Positions 7,728-63,175 are shown, counted from the first letter of the stretch. The stretch is DNA of 64,000 nt from Lachnospiraceae bacterium (GCA_044425805.1 JAWXVC010000011.1:7768-71767); one strand, 5' to 3'. Notes: generated by a model from the sequence alone, not told the origin. Numbers and translations: made by a program.

Positions 7728-7938
7728 GAGAAACTTCTGTTTTACATTAATACTTTCGCATCTGGTATCTATATATAGCTAAAGAGGTACGTTTGCACTA
7801 CACCTCATACGTAACGGTTCATAAAATACTAAGTCGTAGATATCATTTCTTAGTATTTAAGAACCGACTCGCTAGTACCTCTTTTAGCTATATATAGATA
7901 CCTAGACGAGAAAGTTTATATATAAAATAGAAGTTTCA
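7728..7938 (+). repeat. Hairpin-forming intergenic repeat, copy A (full-length form)
   Basis: Long imperfect inverted repeat. GAAACTTC...GGTATCTATATATAGCTAAAGAGGTAC pairs with GTACCTCTTTTAGCTATATATAGATACC...GAAGTTTC. An inner hairpin is GGTTCATAAAATACTAAG / CTTAGTATTTAAGAACC. Homologous to copies at 35676, 50607, 60531 and 62837. Confidence 0.8.
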
Positions 7939-7992
7939 CGAATTCACCGAAAGCATAAAAAGCGAGTAATTAAATATTTTGGAAGTGATGGG

Positions 7993-8057
7993 AAATAGAA
8001 TAGGTGGTTTTATAGACCTTTGGCGTCAGCAGGTCTATAAAACCACCTATTCTATTT
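7993..8057. repeat. Perfect 27-bp inverted repeat with 11-nt loop
   Basis: AAATAGAATAGGTGGTTTTATAGACCT - TTGGCGTCAGC - AGGTCTATAAAACCACCTATTCTATTT. Lies between the convergent activase and AraC genes. No adjacent U-tract on either strand. Confidence 0.8.
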
Positions 8058-8076
8058 TAGGTCACCCCTAAAAAAA

Positions 8077-9330
8077 TTACTCGCGAAACTGCTTCGGTGA
8101 AATTCCGGTATATTTTTTAAAGACCTTGGAGAAGTAGCTTTGGTCTTCGTATCCACAGGAGATAGCAATATCAATCATAGAGTAATCAGTATGTAGTAAA
8201 AGTCGCTTGCTTTCTTCAACACGAACAATGTTTAAATGTTCTTTAAAGGTAGATCCTGTAGTTTGTTTGAATAAAGAGGACAAGTAGGAAGGATTTAAGT
8301 GTACATAATCTGCAACATCTGCAAGTGAAATATCTTCTGAAAAATGTTCTCCGATATAATGAATCACTTTTTTTATAAGTTCACTGTTCGGAGCAGTAGG
8401 GTGTGAAAAGGAGCTTTCGATAAAAGCTTCTACGGTACTTTGTAGTAAGAAGCAGAGTGTATCTAGGGTTGCAACAGATTCAACATTTTTGAAAAAGTCA
8501 TTGTTGATAATGAAAATATCATTCGTAGAGGCACCACCTTCAATGGCAGCTCTTGATAATAAAGAACAAAGTTCGAGTGATCTTGATTTGATACTTTCGA
8601 TGCTGTTTCCTTCAGAGAAGAATACATAGCCTAGTAAATCGTTTAAGAGAGCTTTTGATTGTGTAATATCGCCAGTTTTAACTTTTGAAATCAACAATTT
8701 CTCTTTGTCATATGGATATTGGGGTATCTGCTTTTCACCACCAGATTTATACATTTGAATAGATTCGTTGATTTTTGATTGCTGTAATAACTTGGATTGG
8801 TTATGTAAATAAACTTCTTTGTCATCCGAGAATACATTTCGTAGTAAATAATAGAGCAATTTACTGATGTGTGTTACGGTAGAGGGACTTAGTACAGAAA
8901 TCGAATGCGTTTCATCGTATAATTCTAACAAAGAGTCGGTTGGTATATTGTAGTGCTTTGCAATATCAGATACAAGCGTAGAATCAGGATCGTCCATTAA
9001 AAAAGGACCTACTAACACAGAACCGAGGAAAATATCGTTGTGGATTAGTGGGTAAACAATATGATTTAAATTGGCATGGCAAGAAAATATATAGCTTTCA
9101 CCAAGGGTGATTGCTTTTCTGCTCGCGTTAGTATGTACGATTTCACAAGTGCTATAGGGTGGTAAGAACGCTTGGAATTTGGTACAAAAAGAAGTTTCAC
9201 TTCCGTGTGAGATGATGATTTGCCCATTTTCATCGATAAGTTGAATTGGGAGTGCATTACAAACTTGAAAGGAATAGAGCATTTGGCTAAGTTCTTCTTT
9301 TGGAATCAATTGATAGATATATGGAATCAT
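8077..9330 (-). CDS. AraC-family transcriptional regulator with N-terminal PocR-type sensor domain
   Basis: 417 aa. C-terminal AraC HTH (ADYVHLNPSYLSSLFK ... DQSYFSKVFKKYTGISP). The Cys/His-containing N-terminal region is like PocR sensory domains. Divergent from the corrinoid protein gene. Confidence 0.8.
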   Translation of the reverse strand: MIPYIYQLIPKEELSQMLYSFQVCNALPIQLIDENGQIIISHGSETSFCTKFQAFLPPYSTCEIVHTNASRKAITLGESYIFSCHANLNHIVYPLIHNDIFLGSVLVGPFLMDDPDSTLVSDIAKHYNIPTDSLLELYDETHSISVLSPSTVTHISKLLYYLLRNVFSDDKEVYLHNQSKLLQQSKINESIQMYKSGGEKQIPQYPYDKEKLLISKVKTGDITQSKALLNDLLGYVFFSEGNSIESIKSRSLELCSLLSRAAIEGGASTNDIFIINNDFFKNVESVATLDTLCFLLQSTVEAFIESSFSHPTAPNSELIKKVIHYIGEHFSEDISLADVADYVHLNPSYLSSLFKQTTGSTFKEHLNIVRVEESKRLLLHTDYSMIDIAISCGYEDQSYFSKVFKKYTGISPKQFRE

Positions 9331-12821: not shown

Positions 12822-12856
12822 AGGACTGTCGAAAATAGGCAGTCCTTGTTTTTTTG
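12822..12856 (+). terminator. Rho-independent terminator
   Basis: AGGACTG - loop - CAGTCCT followed by TGTTTTTTT. Confidence 0.75.
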
Positions 12857-12888
12857 TGGACCACTATGAATAGGAATGGAGAAGAGAG

Positions 12889-20015: not shown

Positions 20016-20055
20016 TTATTGTATAGAATACGAAAAAAGTATACTAAAATAATAC

Positions 20056-20150
20056 AAGGGAAGGTAATGTGAAAAACTAGGTTTTTCACAGGCAAATTTG
20101 TGTCATCGACCCAAAGTTTGCAGGCTGAGAAGAAAAGGAAGGTATAGGAG
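20056..20150 (+). promoter_or_regulatory. Conserved two-hairpin leader, copy 1
   Basis: Hairpin GTGAAAAAC-TAG-GTTTTTCAC (20069-20089) and palindrome GCAAATTTGTGTC-ATC-GACCCAAAGTTTGC (20092-20121). Near-identical block at 61215-61313. Confidence 0.6.
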
Positions 20151-22616
20151 ATGTTAGATTTAAACAAGGGGTGGAAATTTGCATTAGAGGGTGAAATACA
20201 TGGTAAATTTAGTTTTTCAGAAATGTTATCAGCACATTTAATAGATTTAGATGAATCTAAATTTGATACCGTTGATGTACCACATGATTACAGTATTGAA
20301 CAACCATACAATGGAGAAATTGGAGAGGGATGTACTGGTTACACGCTTGGTGGACTTGCTTGGTACCGTAAGTCGTTTGAGATGACAGAAGAAATGAAGG
20401 ACAAGAAAGTATTTATTTGTTTTGATGGTATTTATAACCGTTCTAATATTTATTTTAACGAAGAACTCATGGCCTTTCATCCATTTGGATATTCACCATG
20501 TATGATTGATGTTACACAAGGGCTTAGAGAAGGTAAAAACGTCATTGCTGTGCATGTAGATCATACAAGATATGCAGATAGCAGATGGTATACAGGATCT
20601 GGAATTTACAGAAAGGTAGAAATGTATATACTTCCTAAGACATATATTCCAGTATGGGGTACTCGTATTACAACCGATATGGACTCTCGTGAGGAAGCAA
20701 TCGTTACAATTAAACATGCATTTGAGAATGAATGTGATGCTTGTGATGTAACAGTAAAAACGTTGATCACAGATCCTAATGGAGCAGCAGTGTGTGAGCT
20801 AGTTAACACTGTAAGTGTTGATACACAAGCTGTTGTTGAGCAACAAGTAACAATCGAAAATCCTATTCTTTGGGGAATCTTTCAAGGAAACCAATATAGC
20901 GCAGTAACAACTATTATAAAAGATGGCGAAGTTATTCAAACTAAAGAGACTAAATTTGGTATTCGTTATTTCAAATTTGATGTAAATGAAGGCTTCTTTT
21001 TAAATGGTAAAAATGAACTTATAAAGGGTGTGTGTTTGCATCATGATGCTGGTCTTGTGGGTGCAGCAGTACCACAGGATGTATGGCGTAGAAGATTAGA
21101 AGTGCTTGCATCAGCAGGCTGTAATGCGATTCGTACGGCACATAATCCAGTATCGCGTGATTTTATTACACTCTGTGATGAAATGGGTATGTTGGTACAG
21201 GAAGAATTTTATGATGAATGGGATAACCCAAAGGATAAGAGAAACAACATGGCTGATAGCCAAGTAGATTATATTACACGTGGGCATGATGCTTTCTTCC
21301 AAGAATATGCAAAGAGTGATTTACAAGCTATTGTAGAAAGAGATTATAATTCACCTTCTATTATTCAATGGAGTATTGGTAACGAAATAGAATGGACATA
21401 TCCAAAAATTAAATTTGCAACAGGATACTTTAGCGCAGATGCAAATGGTAATTACTTCTTTAGTGAACCACCTTGCACAACAGAAGAAATTCGTGCTAAT
21501 ATGAAAAATCTTCCAAAAGAGAAGCACGAAATCGGCGATACTGCGATGAAGCTTGCTACTTGGACTAAGGAAATTGATACAACAAGACCTGTTATTGCAA
21601 ACTGTATTTTGCCAAGTGCTAGCTATGAAGCAGGGTATACAGATGCACTTGATATGGTAGGTTTTAGCTATCGTCAAGTTATGTATGAAAGATGTCATAG
21701 AGACTATCCAGATAAACCGATTATGGGTACAGAAAATGTAGCACAATGGCAAGAATGGAAGCATGTTGTGGAAAAACCGTATATCTCAGGAATTTTCTTG
21801 TGGACAGGTATTGATTACATGGGAGAGTGTGGTAAAAAAGATGTATGGCCAGTAAAAGCAAATAGAGCTGGTATTATTGATGTGGCTGCCTTTGAAAAGC
21901 CTTCTTATCATATGATGAGATCCCTTTGGACAGATGCACCATGTATTCATATTGTGACACAAACTTTTGAAAACTCTTTATATAATTTAGTGGATGGTGA
22001 ATTGGTTGAAAAACCAACGTCTACTTGGAAGAGAAGACTTTGGAGATGGCATGATGTGAATCCTCACTTCAATTATACTGAGGGTGATCAGGTTGTAGTA
22101 GAAATGTACTCGAACTGTGATAGCATCACATTATTCCATAATGATGTGGAGATATCTACACAACAGCTAGCAGATCATGAAGATAGAATCTACAAATGGA
22201 TCATCCCATATACAAGTGGAAAGTTAGTTGCAGTTGGTAAAAAAGGTGATGAAACGATAGAATCAGTACTTGCTTCTTCAAAAGCACCAGTGAGTGTTGT
22301 ACTTACTTGTGATAGAGAAGAAATTAAAATCGGTTATGATTACGTAGCACATATTGTTGCTGATCTTTATGATGAAGATGGTCATGCAGTAAAGGATCAA
22401 GATGTAGAGATTACATACCATATAGATGAAGCTGCTAAAATCTATGGCTTTGATAGTGGAGCTACAGGATTTGTAGGAGATCATAAGTGTCCAACGATAC
22501 TTACAAATGCTGGAAGGGCACTTGCTATTATCGGCGGGGTAGAGCCAGGGGTATTAAAGGTGACTGCTTCTGTTGACGGAAATATATCAAATGAAATTAA
22601 AATAGTAGTAAAATAG
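20151..22616 (+). CDS. Glycoside hydrolase family 2 (beta-galactosidase/beta-glucuronidase-like)
   Basis: 821 aa. LNKGWKF N-terminus, sugar-binding/Ig/TIM order, WSIGNE acid-base motif. Confidence 0.85.
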   Translation: MLDLNKGWKFALEGEIHGKFSFSEMLSAHLIDLDESKFDTVDVPHDYSIEQPYNGEIGEGCTGYTLGGLAWYRKSFEMTEEMKDKKVFICFDGIYNRSNIYFNEELMAFHPFGYSPCMIDVTQGLREGKNVIAVHVDHTRYADSRWYTGSGIYRKVEMYILPKTYIPVWGTRITTDMDSREEAIVTIKHAFENECDACDVTVKTLITDPNGAAVCELVNTVSVDTQAVVEQQVTIENPILWGIFQGNQYSAVTTIIKDGEVIQTKETKFGIRYFKFDVNEGFFLNGKNELIKGVCLHHDAGLVGAAVPQDVWRRRLEVLASAGCNAIRTAHNPVSRDFITLCDEMGMLVQEEFYDEWDNPKDKRNNMADSQVDYITRGHDAFFQEYAKSDLQAIVERDYNSPSIIQWSIGNEIEWTYPKIKFATGYFSADANGNYFFSEPPCTTEEIRANMKNLPKEKHEIGDTAMKLATWTKEIDTTRPVIANCILPSASYEAGYTDALDMVGFSYRQVMYERCHRDYPDKPIMGTENVAQWQEWKHVVEKPYISGIFLWTGIDYMGECGKKDVWPVKANRAGIIDVAAFEKPSYHMMRSLWTDAPCIHIVTQTFENSLYNLVDGELVEKPTSTWKRRLWRWHDVNPHFNYTEGDQVVVEMYSNCDSITLFHNDVEISTQQLADHEDRIYKWIIPYTSGKLVAVGKKGDETIESVLASSKAPVSVVLTCDREEIKIGYDYVAHIVADLYDEDGHAVKDQDVEITYHIDEAAKIYGFDSGATGFVGDHKCPTILTNAGRALAIIGGVEPGVLKVTASVDGNISNEIKIVVK

Positions 22617-29561: not shown

Positions 29562-29930
29562 ATGGATTTATCCAATTGTATAGAAAAAATCAAAGCTTCA
29601 AAGCTACCACATAGATATAAAAAAAAGCTTATCAAGGATTTAGAGCAGATAGCTAAAGAGAATATACAGGGGATATTGGCTATTGTGTTGTTTGGTAGTG
29701 CAGCTAGAAACGATCTTCGAATTGGTAGTGATTTAGATATCCTAATCCTTACAAACAAGACTGTTGAACAGAGTGTTCGAGGAAGTCTAGCAAGTGACCT
29801 AGAAGAGGAGGTAGACGGAGTCTCTACTGACTTGATTTTTTATACTTATGAAGACTTTAAAGCATCTACCTGTATCTTAGTGCAACAGATTAAGGCAGAC
29901 GGGATTGTGCTTTGGGAAGAAGGGATATAG
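29562..29930 (+). CDS. Minimal nucleotidyltransferase (MNT, antitoxin-like)
   Basis: LFGSAARNDLRIGSDLDILIL (GS...DxD) motif. 122 aa. Confidence 0.75.
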   Translation: MDLSNCIEKIKASKLPHRYKKKLIKDLEQIAKENIQGILAIVLFGSAARNDLRIGSDLDILILTNKTVEQSVRGSLASDLEEEVDGVSTDLIFYTYEDFKASTCILVQQIKADGIVLWEEGI

Positions 29931-29932
29931 CT

Positions 29933-30394
29933 ATGGGAAAAACATTGAATTCGTATTATGGTATGGCAGAAAATGATTACCTTTACGCAAAGGCAGGATT
30001 GACTGTTTGTGAAAAATTAGGTAACTATAATGCAGTTGCATCAGGCTGTGCACAAGCAGCAGAAAAGTATTTAAAGGCGCTAGCTGAAAGATGCTTGATT
30101 GAGGATAGCCAAGCAGTAGCTATTCTTCGGACGCATAATCTTCGAACATTAGTAGCTGCAATCAAGAAAGAATTGACGTATATAGACTTAAACAGCAAAG
30201 ATTGTAAGTGGCTTGGAGATTATTATTATGAAGCTAGGTATCCTGGGGATAACTTTGTGTTAGTATCCAAGGAGGATGCAGAAGAATGTATACGAATCAC
30301 AGAAAAAATATGTGAAATTGTAACAGAAGAGCTTACAAAAATTGCAGAAAGCAAACGTAGTGTTGGGCTGTTTGAAGATATGAAGCGATTGTAG
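29933..30394 (+). CDS. HEPN-domain protein (toxin-like partner of MNT)
   Basis: ATG lies 3 nt after the MNT stop. RTHNLRTL and EARYPG motifs are typical of HEPN (PF05168-type). Confidence 0.7.
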   Translation: MGKTLNSYYGMAENDYLYAKAGLTVCEKLGNYNAVASGCAQAAEKYLKALAERCLIEDSQAVAILRTHNLRTLVAAIKKELTYIDLNSKDCKWLGDYYYEARYPGDNFVLVSKEDAEECIRITEKICEIVTEELTKIAESKRSVGLFEDMKRL

Positions 30395-35471: not shown

Positions 35472-35675
35472 ATTTTCACCCCTATTTCTTTTCTAGAAAT
35501 TTGATTTATAATTAGTTTTGATTAGGGTATGTAATGCTACATATATTATGCAAGCATCTACAAAAAAGATAATTCTAAAAAATGTATAAAGTTGGCATAA
35601 AAAAATATTTACGTTGTATACAAAACATGATAAACTAATTTAGTTAATAGAACAGTATAAACAATGTAGATGATT

Positions 35676-35908
35676 GGAAGTTTCGATTCAATAATACGGA
35701 CTTCTTAGTCAGGCATCTATATATAACTTTAAAGAGGTACTTATGAGCCGTCGGTCCTTAAATACTAAGGAATGTAGTATATGACTTAGTATTTTATGTA
35801 CCGCTACGAGTGAGTAGTAGTGAAATACGTACATGACATACAAGTATGTCAGTAAGTTATATATAGATACCTTGACAAGAAGTCCATATTATAGGACTGA
35901 AATTTTGC
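35676..35908 (-). repeat. Hairpin-forming intergenic repeat, copy B (full-length, inverted relative to copy A)
   Basis: The reverse complement of its core (CTCACTCGTAGCGGTACATAAAATACTAAGTC...CTTAGTATTTAAGGACCGAC) aligns with copy A. The arms are GGACTTCTTAGTCAGGCATCTATATATAAC / GTTATATATAGATACCTTGACAAGAAGTCC. Confidence 0.8.
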
Positions 35909-35946
35909 AATCTCCTATATAGTTAACAGATTGAGAGGGAAAAGTT

Positions 35947-38712: not shown

Positions 38713-38887
38713 GAAATTCTTTAATTGTTAAAAAAGTAAGTGTCAAACTATAGAGTTCTTTTAGGTTGTTTTGTATTTATATTGTATATCGTAGTAGATG
38801 ACTTGCGAAGAAAGTACCTATGTGCTATATTGTGCGAATGGGTATGAGAATTTAATATAAGATTTTTTGTGGCTATATTGCGTACAG

Positions 38888-39058
38888 TAATATAGATGGA
38901 CAAGGGAATCGGGTGTGAATCCCGAACGGTACCGCCGCTGTATGCGTTGAGGTTATGCTTTTTGGTGAAAACCAGTCATTGAGGAAACTTGAGAAGGCAA
39001 GTATAATCGTAGAATAGATGCTATTCTAGATACGTGAGTCAGAAGACCTACAAAGGAC
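38888..39058 (+). promoter_or_regulatory. Cobalamin (AdoCbl) riboswitch
   Basis: AAGGGAATCGGGTGTGAATCCCGAACGGTACCGCCGCTGTA core and B12-box-like GAGTCAGAAGACCTAC. Located upstream of cbiM. Confidence 0.85.
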
Positions 39059-39103
39059 TTAGAAGTCATAGCAAAGCTATGATTATAGAACACAGAAATA
39101 CGG

Positions 39104-50606: not shown

Positions 50607-50727
50607 GGTATTTATATAGTGCTTTTATGTAAGCATTTGTGAACCGTCACTCCTTGGGTGCTTGCATCCTAGTAGTGCTACGGTGAACTATAGCGAGAGC
50701 GGCTTGTCTAAAGCATTATATAAATAC
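50607..50727 (-). repeat. Hairpin-forming intergenic repeat, copy E (short form, D-like subfamily)
   Basis: The arms are GGTATTTATATAGTGCTTTTATGTAAGC / GCTTGTCTAAAGCATTATATAAATACC. The reverse complement aligns with copy D (TTTAGACA.GCCGCT.TCGCTA ... CCCAAGGA ... TTCACA). Confidence 0.65.
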
Positions 50728-50788
50728 CTAGGAGATAGGAAAATAGAATATATGAGTGATTATGAAAGGAAAAGGGGTAAAGAAGGGT

Positions 50789-52255
50789 ATGGAATTAAAA
50801 ATTGAAGAGGGTAAGTTTAATGCAAGTCCAGAGTCACTTATGCAGTATGAGTGTCCAGAATGGTTTAAGGATGCGAAGTTTGGTATTTGGTCACACTGGG
50901 GACCACAATGTGGACCAAGATTTGGGGATTGGTACGCTAGAAATATGTACATAGAGGGTCATCCTCAGTATGAATATCACTGTGAGCATTTCGGACACCC
51001 ATCAAAGGTAGGTTATAAAGATATTATTCCACTATGGAAAGCAGAAAATTTTGAACCAGACAAATTGATGGATTTATACAAGAGAATGGGGGCGAAATAT
51101 TTCGTATCTCTTGCATCTCACCATGATAATTTTGACTGTTGGGATTCAAAATATCACAAATGGAACTCTGTGAATATGGGACCGAAAAAAGATATCGTAG
51201 GTATGTGGAAAGAAGCAGCAAATAAAGCTGGACTTCCTTTTGGTGTAACAGTACATCATGAACGTAGCTATAGCTGGTTTTCTACCAATAAAGGCTGTGA
51301 TACAAAAGGTGAATACGAAGGTGTTCCATATGATGGTAATTTATCTGAATATGCAGATCTATATTATGAAAAACATGATGATACAAACTTTGGATATCCT
51401 ATAAATCCAAGCTATTCTTTTGTAAAAGGTTGGTATGATAGGGTAACAGATCTTATTACAAATTATGATCCTGATTTATTTTACTCAGATGGATCTATTC
51501 CTTTTGATGTAGTAGGTAGATCAGCAATTGCGAACTATTATAACCACAATATGAAGGTGAATAACGGCGAGCTTCGTGCGGTATATAACTTAAAGAATCT
51601 TAAGAAGCGTTCAGCAGAAACAGGTCGTTATTATGGTGATTATTATGAAGGCTGTGGTGTACAAGATATTGAACGCGGTGTTGTAAAAGATATCAATCCT
51701 AGACCATGGCAGACAGATACTTGTATCGGTGGATGGTTCTTTAAAGAAGGAAGAGAGTACAAAACAGCGACTGAGGTAATCAAGCTATTAGTAGATATTG
51801 TTAGTAAAAACGGTAACTTATTACTTAACTTCCCACTTCGCCCTGATGGAACACTAGAGGATGAAGAAATTAAGACGGCAGAAGGAATCGCAGCATGGAT
51901 GGATGTAAATGGTGAAGCGATTTTTGGTACAAGACCTTTTACACACTTTGGTGAAGGTGGAGAAACGCTTGCTGGTGGTGAATTTAATGAAAATGAAATT
52001 ACATACAATGCACATGATTTTAGATTTACGACTAAACCAGATTGTGTCTATGCGATTTGCCTTGGTTGGCCAGAAGATGGACAATTTGAAGTGAAATCAT
52101 TTGGTAGTGCAGTTTATGAAAAAGCTATCAAAAAAGTAGAGATTTTAGGTTGTGATGAAACACTTACATGGGAAGTTCTAGAAGATAAATTAGTAGTAAA
52201 AGCACCACAAGTAAAACCTTGTGATACTGCTTATACGATTAAAATAAGTGTATAA
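50789..52255 (+). CDS. Alpha-L-fucosidase (GH29)
   Basis: FGIWSHWGPQ, KYFVSLASHHDNFDCWDS and GPKKDIVG motifs are typical of GH29. The ORF opens at 50756. Confidence 0.8.
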   Translation: MELKIEEGKFNASPESLMQYECPEWFKDAKFGIWSHWGPQCGPRFGDWYARNMYIEGHPQYEYHCEHFGHPSKVGYKDIIPLWKAENFEPDKLMDLYKRMGAKYFVSLASHHDNFDCWDSKYHKWNSVNMGPKKDIVGMWKEAANKAGLPFGVTVHHERSYSWFSTNKGCDTKGEYEGVPYDGNLSEYADLYYEKHDDTNFGYPINPSYSFVKGWYDRVTDLITNYDPDLFYSDGSIPFDVVGRSAIANYYNHNMKVNNGELRAVYNLKNLKKRSAETGRYYGDYYEGCGVQDIERGVVKDINPRPWQTDTCIGGWFFKEGREYKTATEVIKLLVDIVSKNGNLLLNFPLRPDGTLEDEEIKTAEGIAAWMDVNGEAIFGTRPFTHFGEGGETLAGGEFNENEITYNAHDFRFTTKPDCVYAICLGWPEDGQFEVKSFGSAVYEKAIKKVEILGCDETLTWEVLEDKLVVKAPQVKPCDTAYTIKISV

Positions 52256-60530: not shown

Positions 60531-60762
60531 AAAACTCCTTGCACATATACTAACATTAGATATTAGGCTTTTACGAAACTCCTATTTTATATATCTACTT
60601 CTTAGTCTGTGTATCTATATATAGCTCAAGAGGCACGTTTGCACTACAGTTCGTCGTAGCGGTACATCTTTCAAGCTATATATGGATACACAGACATAGA
60701 AGTTCTCATATAAAATAGGAGTTTCGTAATTAACTAATGCTAGCATATGTGTAAGGAGTTTT
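60531..60762 (+). repeat. Hairpin-forming intergenic repeat, copy C (short core, very long arms)
   Basis: Arms of about 100 nt (AAAACTCCTTGCACATATAC...GTATCTATATATAGCTCAAGAGGCAC versus its imperfect complement). The core GTTTGCACTACA..CGTAGCGGTAC is shared with copy A. The inner hairpin is absent. Confidence 0.75.
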
Positions 60763-60780: not shown

Positions 60781-61074
60781 GTGGTGATGAGTTGTGAGCA
60801 AGAGGGTATAAGGAATGATCAGTTGTTATATGCGGGGCTAAATATTATAAACTCCATAGCGGATATGGAGCATTCGCTTGCCTATATTTTGGAGGCTGAG
60901 GGGAATAAAATAGAAAAGGTTGTATGTACTACGGAGAGAATAGGGGATATACTAGAGGTAAATCATTCGGTACATGAGACGATTACAAGTATTATTCAGT
61001 TAGAGCAGGTGTTATATTCTAAATTGCAGGTGGCTAAGGAGTTTTGTTTGCAAAAAGAAAGGGAGAGCAGATAG
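60781..61074 (+). CDS. Small hypothetical protein
   Basis: 97-aa ORF (ATG at 60787) preceded by GAAAGGTG. Helical-looking, with SIADMEHSLAYILEAEGNKIEKV. No family recognised. Confidence 0.4.
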   Translation: MVMSCEQEGIRNDQLLYAGLNIINSIADMEHSLAYILEAEGNKIEKVVCTTERIGDILEVNHSVHETITSIIQLEQVLYSKLQVAKEFCLQKERESR

Positions 61075-61214: not shown

Positions 61215-61313
61215 AAAGGGAAGGGTATTCGTGTGAAAAATGGAATTCTTCACACGCAAATTTGTGTCTGCGACCCAAAGTTTGCAGGCAGAGAAGAAAG
61301 GTATGGTATTACT
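61215..61313 (+). promoter_or_regulatory. Conserved two-hairpin leader, copy 2
   Basis: Hairpin GTGAAAAAT-GGA-ATTCTTCAC (61233-61253) and palindrome GCAAATTTGTGTC-TGC-GACCCAAAGTTTGC (61256-61285). Matches 20056-20150. Confidence 0.6.
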
Positions 61314-62834: not shown

Positions 62835-62836
62835 TA

Positions 62837-63139
62837 GCATAAATCCTAGCCCTTAGCTTCTGTTAAGTGCTAGGATTTTTCGTAAGTTCTGTTATGCTGT
62901 TTTCTACTTTTGAGTTAGTCCTTGCATTTATACAAAACTTTAGACAGGCCGCTTTCGCTACGAGCTCATACGTAGCGGTACATAAAATACCCAAGGACGG
63001 TATTTAAGTACCGACGATTCACAGTGCCTGCGTAAAAGTGCTGTATAAACGCAAGGTCATTTTCTAAGTATTGAACAGAATCATATCAAGAATATACGAA
63101 AAATCAAGCACTGAACAGAATAATGCTAGGAAGATATGC
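62837..63139 (+). repeat. Hairpin-forming intergenic repeat, copy D (about 300 nt variant)
   Basis: The core CTCATACGTAGCGGTACATAAAATAC..GGTATTTAAGTACCGAC matches copies A and B. The outer arms are GCATAAATCCTAGC...TTTTTCGTAAGTTCTGTT / GAACAGAAT...ACGAAAAATCAAGC...GCTAGGAAGATATGC. Confidence 0.7.
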
Positions 63140-63175
63140 TAAAACAGCTAAAAAATAGTAGAAAGAAGTAAAACT

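Follow-up and report, generated by a model that had tools for sequence, protein, structure and literature searches.

Five diverged copies of a layered hairpin repeat lie between the genes of a Lachnospiraceae genome

Introduction

Small palindromic repeats influence how operons are expressed, how well genomes assemble and how plastic they are, and they have barely been catalogued in uncultured gut and environmental Firmicutes. The DNA analyzed here, referred to as the window, is a stretch of 64,000 nucleotides from a Lachnospiraceae bacterium (GCA_044425805.1 JAWXVC010000011.1:7768-71767). It has a G+C content of 36% and carries ordinary chromosomal genes: c-di-GMP enzymes, a corrinoid-protein activator (RACo), a PocR/AraC regulator and msrAB; a glycan-utilization cluster with GH2, GH43, sulfatases and an ABC transporter; a cobalamin riboswitch followed by cbi/cob and hem genes; and two alpha-L-fucosidases. 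A preliminary description of this DNA reported five segments, designated copies A–E, that share sequence and fold into long imperfect hairpins between genes. The question raised by copy A is how an elaborate hairpin of this kind came to lie beside unrelated genes. Are the five segments truly copies of one element, what has preserved their pairing, and do they act as DNA, as RNA or as both?

Results

Five intergenic loci are homologous

A hidden Markov model was built from a MAFFT alignment of the five loci and searched with nhmmer against the 64 kb window, where its matches are exactly loci A–E (Table 1). Every locus has an additional weaker match on its own opposite strand, as is expected of palindromes with an asymmetric core, and the next match after the five loci, at 12844-12871 with E = 2.4, is an ordinary terminator. 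Because the model was made from the same five loci, this test of homology is partly circular; support independent of the model comes from pairwise blastn and from motif searches compared with shuffled sequence. The 13-mer CGTAGCGGTACAT, with up to 2 mismatches, has 5 matches in the window against 0.43 expected, 4 of them in A–D; for the AT box the count is 10 where 2.55 would be expected, and 8 of these matches lie in A, B, C and E. By blastn, the arms of C and D are 65.5% identical over 145 nt and those of A and D 67% over 107 nt. The most similar pair is A and C, at ~80% overall with one 38-nt non-palindromic block at 95%. No pair among the five is near-identical, and thus there is no sign of recent bursts.

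When inverted repeats are ranked across the whole window, copies A–E take most of the top places. All five lie between called genes, where they fill 5 of the ~12 intergenic gaps longer than 150 nt, and the elements measure 120–305 nt and contain no ORF. Solo modules (an outer arm, AT box or core alone) are absent from the window outside the five copies. The preliminary description is borne out on each of these matters: the five segments lie at the positions and in the orientations that it gave, every sequence block that it listed is present, the loci are strictly intergenic, and their shared ancestry held in nhmmer (E-values of 1e-30 to 1e-52), in blastn and in the comparison of motifs with shuffles. 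The family is real and consists of five diverged homologous copies of one repeat.

Table 1. Location of the five repeat copies and their component parts in the 64-kb window (fold z-scores computed against dinucleotide shuffles).
Feature	Position	Strand	Details
Copy A	7730..7937	+	nhmmer E = 7.6e-51; fold -85 kcal/mol, z = -10.7
A left arm	7730-7790	+	AT box 7764-7780
A core	7791-7874	+	CTAC 7798-7801, GTAA 7811-7814, H2 7815-7866
A right arm	7875-7937	+	
Copy B	35672..35912	- (core reversed)	nhmmer E = 1.8e-52; fold -80.7 kcal/mol, z = -8.7
B left arm	35854-35912	-	
B private insertion, 21-nt near-perfect mini-hairpin ACTGACATACTTGTATGTCAT	35833-35853	-	
B CTAC-N9-GTAG	35804-35820	-	
B H2	35752-35803	-	
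B right arm	35672-35729	-	
Copy E (short form)	50607..50728	- (core reversed)	nhmmer E = 3.3e-30; fold -34.6 kcal/mol, z = -3.2
E arms (AT box only)	50702-50728 and 50607-50634	-	
E GCTA-N10-TAGC with GTAG	50677-50694	-	
E divergent inner hairpin	50648-50677	-	
Copy C	60531..60762	+	nhmmer E = 1.1e-35; fold -110.9 kcal/mol, z = -14.5
C outermost stem	60531-60559 with 60734-60762	+	then T5
C arms	60575-60636 and 60668-60725	+	
C CTAC-N8-GTAG	60644-60659	+	
C remnant H2	60660-60667	+	
Copy D (fullest form)	62835..63141	+	nhmmer E = 5.8e-43; fold -116.6 kcal/mol, z = -10.9
D left arm	62835-62949	+	includes terminator-type hairpin + T5 at 62841-62880
D GCTACG-N8-CGTAGC	62957-62976	+	
D H2	62976-63013	+	
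D ACGATTCAC	63014-63022	+	
D right arm	63026-63141	+	

The repeat is built in layers around an asymmetric core

The anatomy of the repeat was read from a global alignment of the five copies together with alignments of arm against arm. The copies form one family whose concentric layers surround an apical core and are closed by an AT-rich stem and by optional outer arms. The core is asymmetric, spans ~70–85 nt at the apex and has the order G(C/T)TTTC(A/G)-CTAC-N8-10-GTAG, an inner hairpin termed H2, and ACGnTTCAC. It is the best-conserved sequence of the element, with many invariant alignment columns. The length of H2 varies from 52 nt (A and B) through 38 nt (D) to 30 nt (E), and its sequence in E is divergent. 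Copy C keeps just the first 8 nt of H2, its sequence jumping after CGTAGCGGTACAT to the right arm, so that C looks like a deletion derivative that has lost an internal segment. In B, D and E the inner hairpin is immediately preceded at its 5′ foot by the tetranucleotide GTAG, as is the H2 remnant in C; in A the corresponding tetranucleotide is GTAA. In the predicted fold GTAG pairs with the upstream CTAC, which is not preceded by a matching palindrome.

The core is enclosed in 5 of 5 copies by the AT-rich stem GGTATYTATATA(W)(W)GCT..., and A, B and C carry a further ~45 nt arm on each side that ends near AATTnnGAAACTYC. The arms of C and D extend 35–60 nt past the ends of A and B, whereas the arms of copy E consist of the AT box only, an inner stem with no outer layers. 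Arm-against-arm alignment gives lengths of 27–28 nt for E, ~77 for A, ~83 for B, ~110–117 for C and ~123 for D. In D, the fucosidase stop codon is directly followed by a terminator-type hairpin with T5 in the left outer arm (-20.8 kcal/mol, z = -5.1), of which the right arm carries a decayed inverted copy at the matching place. The mini-hairpin inserted in B occurs in one arm only and has no counterpart in the other arm of B or in other copies. The forms had earlier been said to differ by the inner hairpin and by arm lengths of about 45 nt upward; the variation itself is real, but the arms of E fall below that range. A division into two types of arm does not stand: C and D have arms that share ancestry with each other as well as with the arms of A and B, and all belong to one family.

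Pairing was preserved while the sequence drifted

That each copy forms a hairpin, as first described, is supported by folding, because all five fold far better than shuffled sequence (z -3.2 to -14.5). For analysis of covariation, a consensus structure was derived from the individual minimum-energy folds and its pairs were counted on the MAFFT alignment. Standard pairs make up 85.9% of the cells in this structure, and 31 of its 83 pairs have changed on both sides with the pair kept, compared with 12.7 ± 2.6 in column shuffles, none of which (0/500) reaches 31. Sliding the 3′ partner by 1–3 columns leaves 4–7 two-sided changes, against 31 in the true register. In paired columns, pairing within a copy is 72–97% and identity between copies 54–81%, and pairing was thus preserved while sequence drifted. 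Since the structure was derived from the same sequences and n = 5, these controls are indicative and do not amount to a formal test. Compensatory substitutions, which the preliminary description had named as a check on the structure, are present. Such pairing fits selection on the hairpin at each locus, and fits equally a history in which hairpin-constrained master copies seeded new ones.

Is the constraint on pairing one that acts on a particular strand? Mismatches in the stems are balanced, with 14 G:T against 19 A:C, and remain so when re-oriented to the transcribed strand (11 against 10). It follows that neither strand tolerates wobble pairs preferentially.

Copies sit between unrelated genes in mixed orientation

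The flanking genes differ from copy to copy: RACo and AraC for A, msrAB and a permease for B, cobB and a fucosidase for E, hemL and a fucosidase for C, and a fucosidase and an aldose epimerase for D. Four copies begin 2–17 nt past a stop codon, inside or ending co-directional gene runs. The cores of A, C and D read in the same direction as the genes upstream of them, that of E is antisense within a cob operon that must be read through, and B occupies the promoter region between divergently transcribed genes. Promoter scans of core and arms returned promoter-like matches at chance frequency only. In terminator scans a U-run after the hairpin is absent from A, B and E, and a G+C-rich hairpin followed by T5 is found in the sub-hairpin of the D left arm and in the outermost stem of C.

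Segmental duplication along with the two fucosidase paralogues was considered as a source of copies and rejected, as E, C and D differ in their position and orientation relative to those genes. With unrelated genes on their flanks, the copies cannot owe their spread to segmental duplication, and another copying mechanism is required. Two further candidates were set aside. Integron attC sites are marked by R''/L''...L'/R' boxes (RYYYAAC...GTTRRRY), co-oriented cassette arrays and a nearby integrase; the ends of the repeat have no such boxes, no integrase is present, and the copies are dispersed both ways among housekeeping genes. A retron or ribozyme-like RNA was likewise rejected, as the repeat lacks their defining motifs and gives no signal in Rfam.

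No transposase, integrase or recombinase is found among the genes of the 74 kb inspected, and in particular no Y1 transposase or RAYT gene was seen there. At the boundaries of all five copies there is no direct repeat that would indicate a target-site duplication; the TA dinucleotide at the ends of D is indistinguishable from an extension of the palindrome. The genes of the window and the five boundaries thus agree with the original observation that neither a transposase nor an obvious target-site duplication accompanies the repeat.

Database matches and assembly evidence

In a scan of the whole window at Rfam gathering thresholds, the only match is the cobalamin riboswitch, with none at copies A–E. 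Scans at E ≤ 1 over A and C–D returned only sub-threshold generic miRNA-like and sRNA models; for B and E, coverage by Rfam is that of the whole-window gathering scan. The preliminary description recognized no named family in this sequence, which agrees with the lack of a match in Rfam and in collections of phages and plasmids. A core pattern, CGTANCGGTNCATAAAATAC (20 nt with 18 specified bases, matching A, B and D in the window), was searched for exact matches in larger collections. It gave 6 chance matches in 185,579 genomes (one per species) and 13 chance matches in 241 million metagenome records (JGI), in both of which the source genome is possibly absent or masked. Among the 6 genome matches, two lie in coding DNA of Clostridia-type genomes, and the others come from unrelated phyla with only weak local HMM matches. 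Viral contigs contain no match to the core pattern or to the block shared by D and E and only 5 chance matches to the AT box, and neither A nor D has a blastn match among plasmids and phages. Either copies outside the window are few, or the source genome is absent from these collections or masked in them.

By means of Logan contigs (run SRR26557942) the window was extended by 1 kb on the left and 8.8 kb on the right. The 9.8 kb of extra flanking DNA contains no further copy, so the total is 5 copies in 73.8 kb. The high genomic copy number that the preliminary description took five copies in 64 kb to imply finds no support in these flanks or in the collections searched. Logan contigs cross A, D and E without a break and agree exactly with the window in sequence; two of these contigs are recorded in 2 samples. 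In C, two contigs break in the AT box of the left arm, one ending at 60631 and the other starting at 60605, with a 27-nt overlap. This break could stem from a further, almost identical copy at another place, from heterogeneity among strains or from a problem of coverage; another Logan contig ends inside cbiM, which shows that contig breaks are not specific to the repeat. Separately, the contig at the left end (L028 1-70, ~1 kb left of the window) stops within an apparent tRNA gene. Its end, judged by eye, reads as the 3′ part of a tRNA (GGTTCGAGTCC...CCA-like end), a typical repeat-induced contig break.

The HemL protein encoded in the window also occurs on Logan contigs of this run. Its next-best homologues are only ~60–72% identical, and hence no close relative is available for a comparison with empty sites. 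The 20-kb loci of two of them (65% and 60% identical), which encode proteins with duplicated domains, are not syntenic with the window and hold no repeat copy.

Discussion

A hairpin repeat that may be copied through single-stranded DNA

We judge it on balance probable that the five loci are old, diverged copies of a lineage-specific, non-coding interspersed repeat that was copied in trans by way of folded single-stranded DNA. The most likely class is that of non-autonomous hairpin repeats, REP/REPIN- or MITE-like, which would affect the ends of mRNAs as a side effect. A DNA-level repeat whose transcripts fold incidentally is favored over a dedicated strand-specific RNA, and the rationale for this preference is based on the mixed orientation of the copies, the balanced mismatches, the lack of an Rfam family and the chance-level promoter matches. 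In the mechanism that we propose, the repeat would encode nothing and would rely on an enzyme made elsewhere in the genome, which would have copied it into unrelated intergenic sites. One DNA strand folded as a hairpin would be the requirement for copying, and such a requirement would cause the arms to co-evolve. RNA made from the copies within transcription units (A, C, D and E) would form a very stable hairpin capable of blocking 3′ exonucleases, and the RNA hairpins of C and D would be able to terminate transcription; these effects on mRNA would be a by-product or a secondary use.

Which enzyme might move such a repeat? The mobilizer that we favor would be a REP-associated tyrosine transposase (RAYT/TnpA-REP, IS200/IS605 superfamily), because RAYTs recognize, on single-stranded DNA, a GTAG placed as it is here, at the 5′ foot of a hairpin. 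A REP is a palindrome of 20–50 nt that is preceded by a conserved tetranucleotide, usually GTAG, and is recognized as single-stranded DNA, and cleavage by TnpA-REP/RAYT needs GTAG (PMC8266576). The hairpins of REPINs show compensatory changes (PMC3116915), and group 1 RAYTs are present in Clostridia (PMC5581495). The GTAG lead toward REP/RAYT is nevertheless weak on its own: the motif was inherited once with the homologous core, making it one observation and not five, it pairs with CTAC, two inverted REPs are not present, and the search for a RAYT was limited to 74 kb. A more specific hypothesis holds that the repeat is a REP/RAYT-type single-stranded DNA replicator of undescribed architecture, in which a single GTAG-guided hairpin would sit atop a compensated hairpin of 200–300 nt and the outer layers would act as paired terminator modules that face inward and shield the core from flanking transcription. 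We regard this hypothesis as speculative and rather doubtful.

Competing readings

The preliminary description gave equal weight to a structured RNA, acting as a terminator or 3′ stabilizer. On such a reading a stem-loop would terminate transcription or shield the upstream mRNA from 3′ decay, and the sequence would have spread because it is useful. The location of four copies shortly after stop codons in or at the end of co-directional runs is consistent with such a role, as are very stable predicted hairpins with conserved pairing, the terminator-type hairpin with U5 in the left outer arm of D and the outermost stem with T5 in C; moreover, stem-loop control of operon stoichiometry is described for related Clostridia in the available text of two reports (PMC4423207, PMC9045158). 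However, with E antisense and B in a divergent promoter region the asymmetric core has no fixed sense, which together with the balance between G:T and A:C weakens the claim to equal standing. An excess of G:U over A:C appears on neither strand, U-runs are missing from A, B and E, the operon that has E in its middle needs read-through, Rfam gives no match, and a need for a hairpin would leave the conserved 80-nt non-palindromic core unexplained. We consider a functional RNA of this kind unlikely, albeit with an appreciable chance of being correct. A classical MITE, a deletion derivative of an insertion sequence with a DDE transposase that moves by cut-and-paste through its terminal inverted repeats (TIRs), would account for copies of 120–305 nt that are non-coding and intergenic with long inverted arms, and for the similar arm ends AATTnnGAAACTYC in A, B and C. 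It would not account for termini that differ, with E stopping at the AT box, A and B at AATTnnGAAACT and C and D extending 35–60 nt further, or for conservation that is highest in the central core and not at the tips. Compensatory change in the arms is unlike the result of selection by a transposase that binds TIRs sequence-specifically, no direct duplication surrounds any copy, and no insertion sequence lies within the 74 kb inspected. The lack of target duplication, the unconserved termini, the compensated arms and the conserved center are better fitted by a mechanism that recognizes hairpins in single-stranded DNA than by a DDE transposase that binds TIRs, and a classical MITE is distinctly improbable.

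An invertible DNA switch, in which the arms serve as recombination sites and the asymmetric core flips, could be suspected from long inverted arms around an asymmetric core, from the presence of both core orientations among the copies and from the two Logan contigs that break in the left arm of C, a break that heterogeneity of the sample could cause. Against this, the 74 kb inspected contain no invertase or recombinase gene, promoter-like matches in core and arms are at chance, the arms reach the core directly so that no promoter-sized segment is enclosed, and contigs pass A, D and E unbroken; a switch is very improbable. The notion that unrelated terminators resemble one another by chance, or that the palindromes are chimeras of assembly, could draw on the fact that just five copies are known from one metagenome-assembled genome. 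It is effectively refuted by nhmmer E-values of 1e-30 or lower (3.3e-30 for E), by shared non-palindromic blocks of up to 38 nt at 95%, by imperfect arms whose differences are compensated, and by a Logan assembly that is identical through A, D and E, with two contigs in 2 samples.

Relation to known repeats

The repeat falls into the known class of small palindromic interspersed repeats of bacteria (REP/BIME/REPIN, ERIC, Correia, RUP/BOX/SPRITE) and is not a new kind of system. What is distinctive is its long layered hairpin with compensated arms, its asymmetric core with a GTAG-hairpin, and its terminator-like outer modules. Like REP/BIME/REPIN elements it is intergenic, non-coding and hairpin-forming, without target duplication and without a transposase of its own, and as in REP/REPIN compensatory changes maintain the hairpin (31 of 83 pairs here). 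GTAG (GTAA in A) sits directly 5′ of an imperfect palindrome, here the inner hairpin of 30–52 nt, as it would in a REP, but this counts as one observation inherited with the core, and the motif pairs with the upstream CTAC. In size, in contrast, the element measures 120–305 nt, compared with 20–50 nt for a REP and roughly 70–110 nt for a REPIN. The arms of a REPIN are formed by two inverted REPs, whereas the repeat has one apical GTAG-hairpin and its arms are made of the AT box and outer layers, not of REPs. The REP-associated RAYT groups 2 and 3 are mainly proteobacterial, while the host here is an uncultured Clostridia-type metagenome-assembled genome. For REP/REPIN a cognate RAYT is expected, usually flanked by REPs, and none is present in the 74 kb read here; REP/REPIN reach tens to hundreds of copies per genome, against 5 in the 73.8 kb read.

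Bacterial MITEs that fold over their whole length include ERIC, Correia/NEMIS, RUP, Nezha, EFAR and the Rickettsia palindromic elements. The repeat resembles them in being small, non-coding and intergenic, in forming long stem-loops as DNA or RNA, and in having size variants that arise by internal deletion or insertion; it also shares with MITEs a size under about 500 nt, a lack of coding capacity and a multi-copy state. It differs from MITEs in that target-site duplication and conserved termini are lacking and the center is best conserved. The analogy to REP/BIME and MITE elements drawn in the preliminary description is reasonable and gains some weight from the compensatory changes and from GTAG. 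Two inverted REPs and conserved TIRs are both absent. Such folding MITEs are covered by a review, which also describes pneumococcal SPRITE and BOX as modular, terminator-like, nested repeats (PMC10969869). As in SPRITE and BOX, the organization is modular, one module (in the D left arm) resembles a Rho-independent terminator, and the elements adjoin or lie inside other hairpins; unlike in SPRITE and BOX, the layers are concentric and not linear boxA-B-C arrays, and sequence and host are unrelated.

Stem-loops govern operon stoichiometry in cellulolytic Clostridia through selective RNA processing and stabilization, according to the accessible portions of two papers (PMC4423207, PMC9045158). To the extent of those portions, the repeat is similar in being stable, in lying directly after cistrons in Firmicutes operons and in having a plausible effect on transcript ends. 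In the same portions the clostridial stem-loops are not presented as a dispersed homologous family (PMC4423207, PMC9045158), whereas the copies described here share an asymmetric core, occur in both orientations and include one in a promoter region.

Implications

In this family strong compensatory evolution can be seen cleanly along a very long hairpin, and the conserved asymmetric core hints at a putative recognition site of the REP/RAYT type. If a link to a Y1 transposase is true, REPIN-like elements would have a wider host range and a wider range of architectures than is known; if the repeat is a replicator of single-stranded DNA, REPIN-like, vertically persisting "genomic replicators" would extend beyond Proteobacteria, packaged in a new way. 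For this organism, the copies mark points at which short-read assemblies can break, as at C, and they are predicted to mark likely punctuation sites of operon transcripts.

Other features of the window

Several neighboring features are recorded here as observations in their own right. A second long hairpin with 49-nt arms (82% complementary) lies at 7971-8079, 30 nt from copy A and between the convergent genes for RACo and PocR/AraC; its sequence is unrelated to the repeat family, and it probably terminates transcription in both directions. The cobalamin riboswitch at 38850-39069 (RF00174, 79.5 bits) precedes the cbiMNQ cobalt-transport and cob genes in an ordinary arrangement. Within the cobalamin/haem operon (cobB, fucosidase, cobQ, cbiC, hemA...), the alpha-L-fucosidase gene at 50762-52255 is an odd passenger. 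Copy E lies directly upstream of this gene, which raises the possibility that the repeat had a role in its arrival.

A leader of ~90 nt occurs twice, at 20055-20145 and 61219-61309 (83% identical over 78 nt), directly upstream of the GH2 gene 20151-22616 and of fucosidase-2, whose true start is probably ATG 61314. The leader contains two hairpins, TGTGAAAAA-N-TTTTTCACA and GCAAATTTGTG...CAAAGTTTGC, gives no match in Rfam even at E ≤ 1, and may be a shared operator or 5′-UTR regulatory element. Between copy C and the fucosidase leader is a small ORF (60787-61074, 95–97 aa); a precomputed annotation of the Logan contig assigns it to PF26595 (A_ENA), and hmmscan of the 97-aa version returned nothing at E ≤ 1e-3. 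Lastly, the glycan-utilization cluster includes adjacent genes for a nucleotidyltransferase (122 aa) and a HEPN protein (160 aa) at 29562-30394, which are a toxin-antitoxin pair of the MNT-HEPN type.
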